A stretch of DNA of 16,267 bases from Rubritalea profundi. GTDB lineage: Bacteria; Verrucomicrobiota; Verrucomicrobiia; Verrucomicrobiales; Akkermansiaceae. The stretch is from contig NZ_MQWA01000001.1 of NCBI RefSeq assembly GCF_002954445.1, forward strand, positions 2,696,192 through 2,712,458. Direction: 5' to 3'. The translations under genes and the position numbers were made by a program. Under the pieces are notes generated by a model that worked only from the letters and a program-made list of their open reading frames with translations, did no database searches and had not been told where the DNA came from. Positions 3,023 through 9,517 of this stretch are shown here, piece by piece; within the stretch, counting starts at the first letter, position 1, and each line of letters starts with the position of its first letter.

Positions 3023-3952
3023 ATGTTTAAATTAACTCCTATGATTTATGGAGCCGCCCTGATGGCCGCTCCTATGGCTAGTGCAGATAGTTTCGGAACT
3101 GGGGGCAATGCCTTCACTATGGATTTTGTGAATATTGGAAACGCAGGAAATGTAGGGGACGGCACTGGCTACGGTTCTGTAGACAATAATTTCCGCATGG
3201 GGACGCACGAGGTGAGTGAGTCTATGATCGATTCTTACAATGCATTGAGTGCGGGTCCGGATATAACACAAAGTAACCGTGGAATGGATAGTCCATCAAC
3301 TAATGTGAGTTGGAATGAGGCGGCGCGTTTTGTGAACTGGCTCAACACCAGTTCTGGTCACAGTGCGGCTTACCAGTTCGATATTGCTGGGGGAAATGAT
3401 AATATAGCGCTGTGGGATTCTGGAGATGCCGGCTATGAAGCTAGTAACCGCTTCCGCAACAGCAATGCGCACTACTTCCTGCCGAGTGAGAATGAGATGT
3501 ATAAAGCCGCTTACTACGATCCGAACAAGTCCGGTGGGGCTGGTTACTGGGATTATGCAACAGGCAGTGACACAGCTTCTACTACCACGAGTGGTGGAGT
3601 AGCTGCTGGTACAGCGGTGTACAGTCAGTCAGGCCCCGCAGATGTGACCAAGGCTGGTGGTCTGAGTGCGTATGGCACGATGGGGCAGGGCGGCAATGTC
3701 TGGGAGTGGTCAGAGTCTGGCTATGACGCTTCAAATGACAGCGCAGCTGAGTCGCGCGTTTTCCGCGGGGGTGGCTGGTTCGACTACTCCCTCGCCCTGC
3801 AGTCGTCTACCCGCAACGGCCTCAGCCCGGGCCCTGAGAACAGCGCCATAGGTTTTCGAGTCGCAGCCGTGGCTGCGGTTCCAGAGCCATCGTCAGTGAC
3901 TTTGCTGGTATTAGGTGCCATTAGTCTTCTCATGCGTCGTAAACGTGGATAA
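3023..3952 (+). CDS. DGR variable (target) protein: secreted FGE-sulfatase/C-type-lectin-fold protein with C-terminal VR and PEP-CTERM sorting signal
   Basis: 309 aa with a signal peptide (MFKLTPMIYGAALMAAPMASA|DS). FGE-sulfatase-like motifs: SWNEAARFVNWLN, YFLPSENEMYKAAYY, GNVWEWSESGY, RVFRGGGW...IGFRVA. The C-terminus VPEPSSVTLLVLGAISLLMRRKRG has the PEP motif, a TM helix and a basic tail. The VR lies at codons 241-282. Confidence 0.9.
   Translation: MFKLTPMIYGAALMAAPMASADSFGTGGNAFTMDFVNIGNAGNVGDGTGYGSVDNNFRMGTHEVSESMIDSYNALSAGPDITQSNRGMDSPSTNVSWNEAARFVNWLNTSSGHSAAYQFDIAGGNDNIALWDSGDAGYEASNRFRNSNAHYFLPSENEMYKAAYYDPNKSGGAGYWDYATGSDTASTTTSGGVAAGTAVYSQSGPADVTKAGGLSAYGTMGQGGNVWEWSESGYDASNDSAAESRVFRGGGWFDYSLALQSSTRNGLSPGPENSAIGFRVAAVAAVPEPSSVTLLVLGAISLLMRRKRG
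3743..3866 (+). repeat. DGR variable region (VR)
   Basis: 124-nt ungapped match to 5503-5626 (offset 1760). There are 103 identities and 21 mismatches, and every mismatch sits opposite a TR adenine. Confidence 0.95.
3862..3877 (+). promoter_or_regulatory. GC-rich hairpin/cruciform at the 3' edge of VR (candidate DGR target-recognition element, next to the IMH-like invariant 3847-3866)
   Basis: CGCAGC-CGTG-GCTGCG forms a 6-bp stem with a 4-nt loop. The left arm is the last 5 nt of VR/TR homology. The right arm has no counterpart after the TR, where 5627 onward reads GCTCCAGG. Confidence 0.6.
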
Positions 3953-4035
3953 TATTACCCTTTTCCTCTTTGTCTCTTTTCCCTTTTCTTTAGAAGGGTA
4001 AAAGGGCTGAGGAGAAAGGCGAAATTTTCTGGAAT

Positions 4036-4066
4036 CGTGTCGGCGTAAGCCGGCGCGATTTTTTTT
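4036..4066 (+). terminator. Rho-independent terminator between the target gene and avd
   Basis: CGUGUCGGC-GUAA-GCCGGCGCG forms a 9-bp stem (two G-U pairs) with a GNRA-type loop. After one A comes a run of eight T (4059-4066). It ends 6 nt before the avd ATG. Confidence 0.75.
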
Positions 4067-4072
4067 AGTAAA

Positions 4073-4432
4073 ATGAAGATAGAAAAAGCAAAAGACCAGC
4101 CAGTGGTGCTGGTAAAGTGGTATGACTACACCAAGTGGGTGCTAGACCGTGTGGATGGCTTCCCAAAGAATCAGAGGTTTGTGCTAGGGACTAGGCTCGC
4201 GGATGCCGTGGTGCTGGTGGTCGAGCTGCTAGGAGAGGCTACCTTCTCTGAAAAGGGTAAGAAGCGTGAGCTTCTAGATCAAGCAAACCGTAAAATAGAG
4301 GTGGTGCGCTGGCTCATGCGCTTGGCATTGGATAGAAATCTGGTGAGTAAGAAGCAATTCCTCTTCAGCATCCAATCGCTAGAGGAATGCGGCAGGATGG
4401 TCGGTGGCTGGGCACGCTCAATCAAGCTGTGA
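4073..4432 (+). CDS. avd: DGR accessory variability determinant (Avd-like four-helix-bundle protein)
   Basis: 119 aa, basic and predicted all-helical. Resembles the four-helix-bundle/23S-IVS protein family (KWYDYTKWVLDRVDGFPKNQRFVLGTRL...). Sits immediately upstream of the RT, and its stop overlaps the RT start. Confidence 0.85.
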   Translation: MKIEKAKDQPVVLVKWYDYTKWVLDRVDGFPKNQRFVLGTRLADAVVLVVELLGEATFSEKGKKRELLDQANRKIEVVRWLMRLALDRNLVSKKQFLFSIQSLEECGRMVGGWARSIKL

Positions 4433-5469
4433 AGCGGCATAAACATTTATGGAACCAGGTTGCTAGCCTGAATAATCTAGTGGCTGCCGCACAGGCTGCT
4501 ATGTCAGGAAAGAGGACGGGAGCGAGTGGGGCTGCATTCTCAAATGTGTGGGAGACCGAGGTAGTGAAGCTAGAGCGTGAGCTGCGAACAGGTGAGTACC
4601 GCCCAGGCGAGTACCATTACTTTGAAATCCTAGAGCCTAAGAGGCGAATGATAGCGGCAGCGCCATTTAGAGATAGAGTGGTACATCATGCGCTGGTTAG
4701 GGTGCTAGAGCCGCTGTTTGACCCACGCTTTATCGAGGATAGCTATGCCTGTAGAACGGGCAAAGGAACCCATGCAGGAATGCGGAGAGCTTTATTTTTT
4801 AGTAAGCGCTACGCGTGGGTTCTAAAATGTGATATCCGGAAGTATTTCCCTTCTATCCGGCATGACTTGCTGCTGAGTAAGCTAGAGCGGGTGGTGGGGG
4901 ACAAGCAAGTGCTGAACCTGATAGCGCTGATCGTGGGATCACATTCTGAGACTGTGACCCAGGAATGGCGGAAGAATGGTAATTTATTTGATGTGAAAGC
5001 GGTGCGGTGGGGGCTGCCGATAGGGAACCTAACGAGTCAGTTCTTTGCTAATATCTACATGGATGCATTTGATCACTACGTGAAGCAAGGCATCCGAGTG
5101 AAGGGATATGTGCGCTATGTGGATGATTTCTTGCTGTTTGGAGAAGATAGGGCGGAGCTGCGTAGGATAGGTGAACGCTGCCACAAGTATCTAGAGGGTG
5201 AAGGGCTAGTGATACACCCTGACAAATACAGGATGTGTAGGACGGCTGATGGAGTGGACTTCTGTGGCTTTGTTCTGCGTGCTGATGGGCGTGTGAAGGT
5301 GCGCTCGGCTGGTGTGAGGAGATTTCAGCGAAGACTGAAGCAGATGCGCTACGAGGTGTCTCACGGTGATCTGGGGTGGAAGGAGGTTGGCGTATCCGTG
5401 AGATCATGGATAGCGCATGCCGAGCATGCGCAAAGTTGGCGCTTGCGTAGTAGGATACTGGGAGGCTAG
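4429..5469 (+). CDS. DGR reverse transcriptase (RNA-directed DNA polymerase)
   Basis: RT motifs present: LKCDIRKYFPSI, the DGR-typical LPIGNLTSQFFANIYM (IGxxxSQ), YVRYVDDFLLFG (YxDD), IHPDK and VDFCGF. The N-terminus (V)KRHKHLWNQV matches the usual DGR RT start. The likely GTG start at 4429 overlaps the avd TGA (GTGA). The longest ORF begins at 4387. Confidence 0.92.
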   Translation: MKRHKHLWNQVASLNNLVAAAQAAMSGKRTGASGAAFSNVWETEVVKLERELRTGEYRPGEYHYFEILEPKRRMIAAAPFRDRVVHHALVRVLEPLFDPRFIEDSYACRTGKGTHAGMRRALFFSKRYAWVLKCDIRKYFPSIRHDLLLSKLERVVGDKQVLNLIALIVGSHSETVTQEWRKNGNLFDVKAVRWGLPIGNLTSQFFANIYMDAFDHYVKQGIRVKGYVRYVDDFLLFGEDRAELRRIGERCHKYLEGEGLVIHPDKYRMCRTADGVDFCGFVLRADGRVKVRSAGVRRFQRRLKQMRYEVSHGDLGWKEVGVSVRSWIAHAEHAQSWRLRSRILGG

Positions 5470-5502: not shown

Positions 5503-5626
5503 GCAGCTGAGTCGCGCGTTATCCGCGGGGGTAACTGGAACAACAACTCCAACAACCTGCAGTCGTCTAACCGCAACAACAACAGCCCGGGCAATGAGAA
5601 CAACAACATAGGTTTTCGAGTCGCAG
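5503..5626 (+). repeat. DGR template region (TR)
   Basis: Starts 33 nt after the RT stop and contains 38 adenines. Read in VR register it holds 13 AAC and 1 AAT codons (...GG N W N N N S N N LQSS N R N N N SPG N E N N N IGFRVA). It is the invariant partner of the VR. Confidence 0.95.
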
Positions 5627-5826
5627 GCTCCAGGATAGAGATACCTCCTAAAAGAGTGACTCTAGCTGAGCTCATGTTCACGGTGAGAACCGTAGTGGAC
5701 AAGTGTCTCTACGGCAGTGCCGCGCTCTGGAACCACCGGTAGCCCCAGAGCTGGGATGGGTAACCATTCTAGGTCAAATAAGAATAGGAAAAGGTATTGC
5801 GGTGAGTAAGCGATAAGCTGAAAGCC

Positions 5827-6066
5827 GTGATGCTTAGTGAATGTGAGAATTTTAAGATAGATATGAATGAGTCTGGAGGAAATGAGCGGTCAGAGAGCGA
5901 GGTGACTCGCCGGAGGCGCAGTAAGAGTGATAATCATAGTCAAGAGGATCAGTCTGAAATACGAGGTTGTGCTGTCGCGATTCTTGTGGTGGTGGCTCTG
6001 GTGTTAGGGGGAACTATATGCTATCTGGAGGCGAGGAGGAAGTGGTTGCCGATAGGCAAGTGGTAG
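5827..6066 (+). CDS. Hypothetical N-terminal fragment with one TM helix (probably the 5' part of the next ORF)
   Basis: 79-aa ORF with a charged N-terminus followed by the hydrophobic segment CAVAILVVVALVLGG. It overlaps the next ORF by 100 nt in another frame, with a GGGGG run at 6006-6010. Confidence 0.35.
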   Translation: MMLSECENFKIDMNESGGNERSESEVTRRRRSKSDNHSQEDQSEIRGCAVAILVVVALVLGGTICYLEARRKWLPIGKW

Positions 6067-6704
6067 CGTCGGCGATTGTTCAAAAAGAACCGAACGCTGA
6101 AGAGGTAGCGAGAGCATTTATCGCCGAGATAAATGTGGAGAAACGGCTGACAATGGTACGAAATAGGGAAGTGGTGAAAACGCATCTAAGCAGTTATACG
6201 GAAGAGGCGCTTAAAGAACCAGGTGTGGAGATCCGAGAAATGATGCGCAGGACTTTTGGAGACAAAGAGAGGACGTCTTATGCTGTGAGTTTTACCAGCG
6301 GTAGTCTACGGCTGCTCAATGTGCTAGAGACTGATGAGGGACCTAAGGTGGACTGGGATAGCTACGCACGCTACTGCTCTGTTAGCTGGGACACCCTAAC
6401 CAACGGGGAAAGTGTTGATCCAGCTCTCGTGCGGGTTTTTGTGCGACCAGGGAGTCATTACGCAGGTGAATACCTGGATCAAAAGAAGTGGCTGTGCTTC
6501 CAGCTAGAAACACCCGACTGTGGCGAGACTCTCTATGCCTACGGAAAAGTAGGTGAAGAAAATGCCGAGAAAATGAAGGAGATTGTGCTGCGAGCTAAGA
6601 ACTATCGACAGCACATGACTCTGGAGCTGGAGGCTAAGGGAAAGCTAGATGGCGCATGTCTGTTCGAGGTGAAGAGGCTTGTGACTGTTGGCTGGGTGGA
6701 GTAG
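6018..6704 (+). CDS. Hypothetical protein (no family recognised) adjacent to the DGR
   Basis: Long open frame (5967-6704 in the track, first ATG at 6018). Its CTA-Leu/AGR-Arg codon style matches avd and RT. Confidence 0.6.
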   Translation: MLSGGEEEVVADRQVVASAIVQKEPNAEEVARAFIAEINVEKRLTMVRNREVVKTHLSSYTEEALKEPGVEIREMMRRTFGDKERTSYAVSFTSGSLRLLNVLETDEGPKVDWDSYARYCSVSWDTLTNGESVDPALVRVFVRPGSHYAGEYLDQKKWLCFQLETPDCGETLYAYGKVGEENAEKMKEIVLRAKNYRQHMTLELEAKGKLDGACLFEVKRLVTVGWVE

Positions 6705-8347: not shown

Positions 8348-9517
8348 TTAGCGAATGTTCGCTTTGGCCATTTCGTCGATAAGGACGTCGCGGAGTTCTT
8401 GCTCATCGAGGCCTCCAGTTTTACGCCAGACTACTGTGCCTCCTGGGGCAATGAGCAGAGTGTGCGGGATAGGGCCTTGCCATTTTGGATCGATCGCATT
8501 GGCCAGAGCTTCGAGGTCACCACCACGGTAATGGAAGTTGTTGGTCTTGCGTCCTTCTTTTTCCACAGATTTCTTGGTCCATCTGGCGAGTGGGAGGTGT
8601 TGTTCCTTGATGAAGCTTGAAACTGAATCCGCATCTTTCTTAGGATCAATCGAGATAGTGATGAGTTCAAACGGACGCAGAGAATGGCGTTGGTAGGTTT
8701 CTACCAGCATTGGAAACTCAGCGACACAAGGACCACAGCTGGTCGACCAGAGATTGATGAGGCGCATTTTTCCAGTGTCGTTTTTAGCGAGCTTCGTGGC
8801 GAGTTCTACATCGATAGCTTCAACGGAGATTGGAAGGGCATTCCATTGCTTATTGTATTGATCGACGAGTTCAGACTTTCCCTTCCACTTAGTGGAGCAA
8901 CCGAAGACGCGGGTCTTAGCTTCAGGAACGGGCTTTCCTGCTAGAAGTGCATCCATCGTATTGAGGACGGTTTTCTTTTTCGCTGGACCTGGGTCGCGCT
9001 TGGCGTCGTCAAAATGTCCTTGGTAGAGGAGCTTTCTCTCGGGACCGAAGATGAAGACGTGGGGTGTGGCGACTGCTCCGTAGGCGATTGAGGCCGTCTG
9101 ATTTTCGCCGTCGTAGAGGTAAGGGTGTGACAGCTCGTATTCTTTTGCCACGGCTTTCATTGATTTAAAGTCGTCGTTGTACTTTGAGTAGGCATTCTCC
9201 CAGATCTGGACGCCGGCCATCGACGCGCTGGAGATTGCTACGACCTCGACTCCTTTATCCGCGTAGTCTTTTGCGAACTGGTTGACCTTACCACGCGCAG
9301 CTATGGCGTCAGGGCAGTGATTGCAGGTAAAGACAGCGACAAGGTACTTAGCATCTTTAAAGGAGTTGAGTGTGTAGATTTTGCCATCGGTGGCTGGGAG
9401 TGAGAAATCCGGGGCTGATGCGCCGATTTCTAATGTGGTCACATTCTGAGGTGCCGCAGTGGCTGAAAATGTGAGACTAGCTACCGCGATTATTGCGGTG
9501 AGTGGTTTGGTGATCAT
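8348..9517 (-). CDS. Secreted two-domain thioredoxin-fold protein (AhpC/TSA-redoxin domain plus TlpA-like domain)
   Basis: 389 aa with a signal peptide (MITKPLTAIIAVASLTFSATAAP). Two CxxC centres are present: FTCNHCPD and WSTSCGPCVAEFP. Confidence 0.8.
   Translation of the reverse strand: MITKPLTAIIAVASLTFSATAAPQNVTTLEIGASAPDFSLPATDGKIYTLNSFKDAKYLVAVFTCNHCPDAIAARGKVNQFAKDYADKGVEVVAISSASMAGVQIWENAYSKYNDDFKSMKAVAKEYELSHPYLYDGENQTASIAYGAVATPHVFIFGPERKLLYQGHFDDAKRDPGPAKKKTVLNTMDALLAGKPVPEAKTRVFGCSTKWKGKSELVDQYNKQWNALPISVEAIDVELATKLAKNDTGKMRLINLWSTSCGPCVAEFPMLVETYQRHSLRPFELITISIDPKKDADSVSSFIKEQHLPLARWTKKSVEKEGRKTNNFHYRGGDLEALANAIDPKWQGPIPHTLLIAPGGTVVWRKTGGLDEQELRDVLIDEMAKANIR

Follow-up and report, generated by a model that had tools for sequence, protein, structure and literature searches.

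The stretch of DNA considered here (16,267 nucleotides (nt) of Rubritalea profundi contig NZ_MQWA01000001.1, positions 2,696,192 to 2,712,458, hereafter the window) carries two closely related segments of 124 nt, one within the gene of a lectin-like protein and the other in non-coding DNA beyond a reverse transcriptase (RT) gene. This raises the question whether the coding copy is a variable repeat (VR) rewritten from the non-coding one, or template repeat (TR), by a diversity-generating retroelement (DGR), and whether such an element has been active. Our results argue strongly, with a probability of roughly 0.93, that the locus is a chromosomal DGR of R. profundi, organised in the order target-avd-RT-TR-structured RNA and carrying out adenine-mutagenic retrohoming into a lectin-like target. 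This identity follows from adenine-only mismatches between the two repeats, a DGR-type RT, an Avd protein, a target with a C-type-lectin (CLec) fold and an invariant TR facing a variable VR. The source record bears no DGR annotation, and the genes are labelled 'SUMF1/EgtB/PvdO family nonheme iron enzyme' and 'reverse transcriptase/maturase family protein'. The principal parts of the element are as follows:

3023 to 3952, plus strand: target (variable protein) gene from the list of open reading frames (ORFs), 309 amino acids (aa), with a signal-peptide-like N-terminus, an FGE-sulfatase/C-type-lectin fold, the VR and a PEP-CTERM tail
3743 to 3866, plus strand: VR, target residues 241 to 282, in frame 0 of ORF 3023 to 3952
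3760 to 3848, plus strand: VR core that differs between the two strain alleles described below (27 differences between the window and locus L082)
4073 to 4432, plus strand: avd, 119 aa (Pfam bAvd 53.5 bits, cut-off 40; NCBIfam equivalog NF033474 DivGenRetAVD 81.9 bits, cut-off 80)
4429 to 5469, plus strand: DGR RT, 346 aa from GTG 4429 (Pfam RVT_1, E 2e-25; the mechanical ORF starts at ATG 4387)
5503 to 5626, plus strand: TR, non-coding, 34 nt 3' of the RT stop, with 28 of its 38 adenines in 14 AAY codons
5679 to 5835, plus strand: conserved structured RNA, spacer-like (covariance model R1, 25.8 bits, E 5e-5)

The adenine pattern between the two repeats had been described in the initial annotation from an alignment made by hand. 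A computational realignment of VR and TR, likewise ungapped, returned the same 103 identities over 124 positions and exactly the 21 mismatch positions previously listed. All 21 mismatches fall on an adenine of the TR, replaced in the VR by G (eight cases), C (seven) or T (six), and none of the 86 non-adenine positions is changed. Given 38 adenines among 124 positions, such a confinement would arise by chance with a hypergeometric probability of 9.7e-14. Neither mismatches at non-adenine TR positions nor any need for indels were found between VR 3743-3866 and TR 5503-5626. The similarity stops sharply at both boundaries of the repeats, and an independent repeat finder recovered this pair as the sole long repeat in the window.

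The consequences drawn for the protein also withstood recomputation. Read in the VR frame, the TR contains 13 AAC codons, one AAT and one ATC; twelve of the AAY codons and the ATC are altered in the VR, where the isoleucine and twelve asparagines encoded by the TR become F, G, F, D, Y, L, A, T, G, L, P, S and A. The figure of 15^14 protein variants given earlier (2.9e16) is correct for the 14 AAY codons alone, and an enumeration over all 38 TR adenines set the ceiling at 1.5e20. In the same enumeration no TR codon could turn into a stop.

Evidence that the element has been at work came from a second strain, represented by loci L082, L083, L084 and L085 (assemblies ERZ27293894 and ERZ27293827 and TARA sample SAMEA4398043) and syntenic with the window. 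Its TR is identical to that of the window at 124 of 124 positions (L082 5547-5670, L085 1447-1570). Its VR (L082 3787-3910) differs from the TR at 25 positions, 23 of which are adenines (P = 5.5e-13). Over about 9.95 kb, the window and L082 show 44 differences, 27 of them within the VR (0.21 expected, P = 7e-47) and 17 elsewhere, so that divergence of the two strains outside the VR is 0.17%. Among the 27 inter-strain differences of the VR, 25 are situated at TR-adenine positions; the TR itself contains none. Adenines varying in either allele amount to 29 of the 38, and the nine that never vary are located at both ends and in non-AAY codons, except 5546, the second position of an AAC codon. The target protein of this second strain is variant P0122 from the 90%-identity cluster of the target, with three residue differences outside the VR and differences throughout it. 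An unchanged TR together with a replaced VR in near-identical strains means that the element retrohomed after the strain split. At least one TR-to-VR retrohoming event thus postdates the divergence of the two strains and, since the VR was re-drawn at a background divergence of 0.17%, this activity is evolutionarily very recent. The statement that the element has been active is thereby supported, and R. profundi, a marine species of Verrucomicrobiota available in culture, joins the carriers of a demonstrably recently active DGR. With two VR alleles occurring naturally on a near-identical background, the strains also offer a clean natural experiment on the ligand specificity of the variable lectin.

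The same comparison bears on a more ordinary origin of the pattern, namely a duplication that has since diverged, or a surface protein whose C-terminus is subject to recombination or diversifying selection; the adenine bias would then be coincidental and the RT an unrelated neighbour. Surface proteins are often hypervariable between strains, and two differences of the second VR do not fall on adenines, as such an origin would allow. Yet adenine restriction would have to arise by chance, at about 1e-13, in each of two independent alleles, and it is the non-coding copy that stays invariant and the coding copy that varies. Moreover, Avd and a DGR-type RT are adjacent, and dozens of relatives show this pattern together with this set of genes. 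We therefore consider this origin extremely improbable and already effectively refuted.

The relatives scanned comprised 80 RT-relative loci from other genomes which, with the window and same-species loci, made up 86 sequences. Adenine-biased TR/VR pairs were found in 57 of the 80 RT-relative loci, or in 60 of the 86 sequences when the window, L001 and L082 are included. In the window and most relatives with such pairs, the TR lies 30 to 80 nt 3' of the RT stop.

The proteins encoded beside the repeats supported the signature of mutagenic retrohoming recognised in the initial annotation, with an Avd, a DGR-type RT and a CLec/FGE target. GTG 4429 is the most likely start of the RT and shares bases with the stop codon of avd (GTGA). 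RTs of the DGR clade were recognised by [I/V/L]GxxxSQ in place of QGxxxSP and by the catalytic motif YxDD; the present RT carries IGNLTSQ from nt 5020 (residue 212) and YVDD at 5116-5127 (residue 244, both in the numbering of the 360-aa ORF). Its best match in the PDB was 8ub7 (a 328-aa 'Reverse transcriptase', E 1.5e-41, aligned over residues 16-352), which we take to be the Bordetella bRT. About one third of the residues are identical to bRT, a value estimated by eye from the alignment and not computed. The best group II intron RT in the same search was far behind 8ub7 (E 2e-23), as were retron RTs, and none of the NCBIfam group II, retron and DRT models reached its cut-off, all remaining far below. 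The counterparts of bRT R74 and I181, which promote adenine mutagenesis in bRT (PMC7826257), are conserved. At the database level, the RT is 100% identical to R. profundi PQJ29113.1 / WP_165788809.1. A PDB sequence search with Avd gave no match.

The target, 100% identical to R. profundi PQJ29111.1 / WP_105043604.1, contains the Pfam domain FGE-sulfatase (PF03781, E 1.6e-16) over residues 84-281, with the VR (residues 241-282) as its C-terminal part, and a PDB sequence match to pFGE also covers the VR. The AlphaFold2 model, obtained with 71 homologues, had a mean pLDDT of 80 and a pTM of 0.82. Its top PDB match by Foldseek was TvpA of Treponema denticola (2Y3C, E 1e-10, TM 0.52-0.57), followed by FGE, EgtB and similar structures.

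A structured RNA completes the element. Alignment of the 200 nt that follow the TRs of relatives uncovered the motifs GCCnGAG, GnGUGC, UCCnGG, CGAAnA and GGUAG...CGAA, together with helices displaying abundant compensatory changes. Covariance model R1, built from 35 relatives with the window left out, matched the window once, at 5679-5835, and, where relatives have the TR ahead of the RT, it also gave matches between the two. In the named helices, 85.7% of cells were paired versus 53% in shuffles, and the covariation score was 0.714 versus 0.206 in shuffled alignments (none of 500 as high) and 0.11-0.20 with partners slid. Within 5679-5835 the following features were distinguished:

5682 to 5687, plus strand: GGTGAG
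5690 to 5695 with 5709 to 5714, plus strand: helix
5724 to 5730 with 5745 to 5751, plus strand: helix
5754 to 5769, plus strand: GUAA hairpin
5774 to 5788, plus strand: A-rich linker
5791 to 5802 with 5825 to 5835, plus strand: long helix enclosing GAGUAAG...GAAAG

Since the covarying RNA follows the TR whichever side the RT lies on, TR and RNA form one module. The varying side of the RT among relatives further indicates that this module was transposed relative to the RT during evolution of the clade. TR and RNA were situated upstream of the RT in a minority of relatives (L026, L058, L063, L065, L070, L076, L077 and L081), which include Chlorobiaceae/Chlorobium and KSB1 metagenome-assembled genomes (MAGs), the other MAGs being labelled only 'bacterium', 'archaeon' or Pseudomonadota.

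At Rfam gathering thresholds, no RNA family was detected in the window or in 17 relatives, save one unrelated tRNA, and no tRNA lies within the window. The RNA weakly resembles RF03022 (Phage_DGR), which likewise lies immediately 3' of the TR in the same orientation and presents, in the same order, a hairpin, an A-rich linker (AAUA) and a long helix around GAGUAg...GAAA. We assume, unchecked, that this family corresponds to the RT-10 motif of Weinberg and colleagues. Weinberg et al. 2017 (PMC5737381) located the RT-10 motif of BPP-1 between its TR and its RT. Non-coding sequence downstream of the BPP-1 TR binds Avd and renders the synthesis of cDNA processive (PMC6182149). By these likenesses, RNA 5679-5835 may resemble the BPP-1 spacer RNA in role, while standing outside RF03022 by Rfam's threshold.

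If the element works as in Bordetella phage BPP-1, an RNA comprising the TR (5503-5626) and the structured segment 5679-5835 would be bound by the RT-Avd complex. The RT would copy the TR faithfully at U, C and G and place random nucleotides opposite adenines, and the mutagenised cDNA would then replace VR 3743-3866 in the target gene, the TR staying intact. With the adenines of the TR concentrated in its 14 AAY codons, every round would re-draw about 13-15 residues on the ligand-binding face of the target and never create a stop codon. These biochemical steps, the surface display and the ligand of the target are inferred.

The fate of the diversified protein is suggested by its two ends. The N-terminus resembles, by eye only, a signal peptide (MFKLTPMIYGAALMAAPMASA/DS), and a PEP-CTERM sorting signal directly follows the VR:

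3875 to 3943, plus strand: PEP-CTERM sorting signal, with VPEPS, a hydrophobic helix and RRKRG, directly 3' of the VR

Pfam PF07589 (PEP-CTERM) matched target residues 285-307 (VPEPSSVTLLVLGAISLLMRRKRG) with 22.4 bits (cut-off 20.7), and the NCBIfam PEP-CTERM subfamily models gave only weak matches to the tail. The constant end of the VR, GFRVAA, leads straight into VPEPS, and the VR is not gene-terminal, being followed by its terminal constant segment and 28 codons. Given the putative signal peptide and the PEP-CTERM tail right after the VR, the most likely fate of the target is export and display, on the cell envelope or outside it, via the exosortase route, as a variable binding protein. 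A PEP-CTERM end was present in at least 103 of the 120 closest target homologues, which are mostly metagenomic and include, among named ones, Haloferula, Rubritalea marina and Akkermansiaceae. An Oceaniferula MAG, whose TR is identical to that of the window at 112 of 124 positions, likewise has a PEP-CTERM-tailed target. Such recurrence suggests a large aquatic Verrucomicrobiota family that displays hypervariable binding proteins via exosortase. Exosortase display would link two poorly understood systems, DGR and PEP-CTERM/exosortase, and none of the papers searched joins DGR with PEP-CTERM.

The start of the target gene differed between strains. In the second strain, which lacks T3040, the first ATG (3023) is out of frame and only ATG 3041 is usable in both strains; a start at 3041 leaves an unusually short signal peptide (MIYGAALMAAPMASA/DS). 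The second ATG, 3041, may be the true start.

The VR's end and the sequence beyond it displayed two features:

3849 to 3866, plus strand: invariant VR 3' end, resembling an initiation of mutagenic homing (IMH) site, TAGGTTTTCGAGTCGCAG, identical in the TR, where adenines 5610, 5619 and 5625 never change
3862 to 3877, plus strand: GC hairpin straddling the VR end, CGCAGC-CGTG-GCTGCG, with 6 bp and a 4-nt loop, absent at the TR end

The constant part after the last variable adenine extends over 18-20 nt, is the same in VR and TR, and gives way to divergence past 3866 and 5626. According to Wu et al. 2018 (PMC5758913), some DGRs have an IMH identical to IMH*. That survey also describes a GC-rich inverted repeat (cruciform) after the VR, required in Bordetella and Legionella and present in 34% of DGRs. 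In the window, the DNA fold of hairpin 3862-3877 has -6.8 kcal/mol and a z-score of -0.74, and a comparable hairpin was found at 4 of 31 VR ends versus 7 of 31 TR ends in relatives. As it is neither significant nor conserved, this hairpin is not claimed as a functional part.

Several points weigh against the reading of a complete and working DGR. A hairpin of the Bordetella type after the VR is doubtful here, being weak in the window and not conserved in relatives. The RF03022 match, though full-length and in the expected place and strand, had 14.1 bits (E 3.5-6.4) for a gathering score of 50, which none of the 17 relatives reached either. Export and exosortase processing of the target are deduced from sequence motifs alone. 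The two non-adenine differences of the second VR from the TR, T5520G and G5525T, adjoin the first variable adenine and need non-canonical DGR errors or ordinary point mutation. Finally, the strain data show retrohoming since the split, not present-day activity. Two VR alleles were recorded in all: the isolate and metagenome contig L001 carry an identical allele 1, and three assemblies (L082, L083 and L084) an identical allele 2. Scans of JGI metagenomes, one with the TR having every A replaced by N and the other with the junction of VR end and PEP-CTERM coding sequence, returned no further alleles.

Such fixation of each allele across independent assemblies, the two scans without further alleles and the weak hairpin at the VR end are what a dormant or fossil DGR would leave, the pattern recording past retrohoming by an element now inactive in R. 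profundi populations. We consider dormancy unlikely: avd and RT are intact, with every residue tied to catalysis or mutagenesis in place, both strains have the same TR and the same RNA after it, and the VR is wholly re-drawn between strains that are 0.17% different elsewhere. Minority variants would, moreover, be hidden by assembly consensus sequences. A DGR with very recent retrohoming stays our reading of the locus.

Its genomic setting is that of a chromosome. The flanking genes are housekeeping ones (M23 peptidase, fumarase, K+/H+ antiporter, peroxiredoxin/thioredoxin, ribosomal protein S14, CorC, DEAD helicase and 3-keto-disaccharide hydrolase), the GC content of the element is similar to that of its flanks, and the RT is at most 36% identical to phage RTs versus up to 69% identical to cellular Verrucomicrobiota RTs. 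These three features mark the element as resident and cellular. Phages do carry many DGRs, and 178 relatives of the RT come from phages, which would suit a prophage or plasmid whose DGR varies the receptor-binding protein of a phage, in the manner of BPP-1. This origin is nevertheless very improbable since, besides the flanks devoid of phage genes, the matching GC content and the RT identities, the target has a PEP-CTERM cell-sorting signal and synteny is identical in both strains.

Among known systems, the resident element has the same core order as Architecture B2 (avd-RT-TR) of Wu et al. 2018 (PMC5758913), with no architectural difference from that class. It is a further DGR of the already known B2 architecture, and the established picture of DGRs is unchanged. 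Verrucomicrobia are unmentioned in the main text of that survey (complete element list not covered). R. profundi was not found in the searchable supplementary files of Roux et al. 2021 (complete element list not covered), from which the terms 'Rubritalea', 'PEP-CTERM' and 'PF07589' are also absent. Among the papers on R. profundi that were searched, none concerns the present locus.

The BPP-1 DGR (mtd-avd-TR-brt) shares adenine-specific TR-to-VR transfer, Avd, an RT with [I/V/L]GxxxSQ, an AAY-rich TR, a VR in the C-terminal part of a CLec-fold protein and a structured non-coding RNA directly after the TR. It differs in being phage-borne with the order avd-TR-RT, whereas the Rubritalea element is chromosomal with the order avd-RT-TR. 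The BPP-1 target is a tail-fibre protein and the Rubritalea one an FGE-subtype CLec fold with a PEP-CTERM tail. A further distinction from BPP-1 is that the Rubritalea IMH is identical to IMH* within the repeat and that the GC hairpin after the VR is unconvincing. The Treponema denticola TvpA DGR (2Y3C) has in common a cellular location, an FGE-like CLec fold and a secreted or surface variable protein, with about 20% sequence identity between TvpA and the target. TvpA is a lipoprotein, in contrast to the C-terminal PEP-CTERM signal of the Rubritalea target. Moreover, the Treponema DGR belongs to Architecture C (with HRDC), not B2, in the scheme of Wu et al. (PMC5758913). The Legionella pneumophila LdtA DGR is likewise chromosomal, uses avd and diversifies a CLec-fold protein displayed at the surface. 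LdtA has its anchor at the N-terminus, as a lipoprotein (Arambula et al. 2013, cited in PMC8144416), whereas the Rubritalea target has a C-terminal PEP-CTERM signal, with 28 coding residues past the VR.

Beyond the target stop codon, another conserved arrangement was observed:

3958 to 3991, plus strand: pyrimidine-rich tandem units of about 9 nt after the target stop, CCCTTTTCC TCTTTGTC TCTTTTCC CTTTTCTTT (ACCCTTTTCCTCTTTGTCTCTTTTCCCTTTTCTTT)
4031 to 4066, plus strand: terminator-like 14-bp hairpin and T-run between target and avd, from a terminator scan

Throughout the RT clade, two to four pyrimidine-rich units of about 9 nt, typically CCCTTTTAC, occur after target stop codons and are followed by a GC hairpin and a T-run; similar hairpin and T-run sites follow the repeats in relatives. 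The units were kept after remote second and third VRs despite otherwise diverged flanks and, in PEP-CTERM-bearing targets, they follow the stop codon and not the VR end. Their 6-mers were about 10-fold enriched versus the 60 nt after 1118 other ORFs of the same loci, a comparison that involved a crude choice of reading frames. They are unmentioned in the portions of the DGR survey text consulted. After target stops, units were seen across phyla in L004, L005, L006, L009, L016, L019, L046, L056, L064, L066, L069 and others, and variants occur in Bryobacterales and Chlorobiaceae loci.

Two candidate roles for the units were discarded. Pairing of the DGR RNA with the repeats, noted by eye between GGAAAAGG (5788-5795) and CCTTTTCC (3963-3970), was inconsistent in L006, L010 and L016; in L041, complementarity was seen by eye between GTAAAAG of the DGR RNA and CTTTTAC of the repeats. 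Formation of H-DNA, which involves mirror-repeat polypyrimidine, was set aside since units in most relatives contain adenines and are not pure homopyrimidine.

We put forward, tentatively, a proposal in two parts that we hold to be rather unlikely as a whole. The post-stop module, composed of two to four CCCTTTTAC-like units with a GC hairpin and T-run behind them and retained also at remote second targets, would be a cis element of retrohoming or of target-gene control that replaces the Bordetella-type cruciform in a widespread avd-RT-TR clade. In addition, the Verrucomicrobiota targets would make up a large undescribed family of PEP-CTERM/exosortase-sorted hypervariable lectins. If true, exosortase sorting would add, to phage tail fibres and lipoproteins, a third means by which DGRs achieve surface display. 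For the homing step of DGRs, itself still undefined, the post-stop repeats and the RNA next to the TR provide concrete candidate cis elements.

Contigs L083, L084 and L085, from two metagenome assemblies, break near window positions 4057-4083, between target and avd, at the terminator hairpin and a T8 run. TARA contigs L083 and L085 overlap by 27 nt at the break, and L084 (ERZ27293827) ends about there too. The breaks may have arisen in the assembly graph, through low coverage or through the TR/VR repeat.

Further observations concerned the neighbouring genes. Just 3' of the DGR RNA (window 5827-6704, L082 5874-6749), the second strain has an intact ORF of 291 aa, with no Pfam or NCBIfam match; in the window and L001, the loss of one base near 6006 divides it into two ORFs that overlap. 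Lacking a family match and frameshifted in the window strain, it was rejected as an accessory gene. At about 1424 and 9917, the window has one base fewer than metagenome assemblies L001 and L082. One gap falls in the fumarase gene (549 versus 544 aa), the other in the gene of ribosomal protein S14 (101 versus 89 aa), and both are probably single-base assembly errors in the isolate genome. Lastly, a two-domain ORF of 389 aa (AhpC/TSA and thioredoxin-like) is intact in the window (8348-9517, minus strand), and is split into 202 and 172 aa in the second strain by a T-to-A change at window position 9001.

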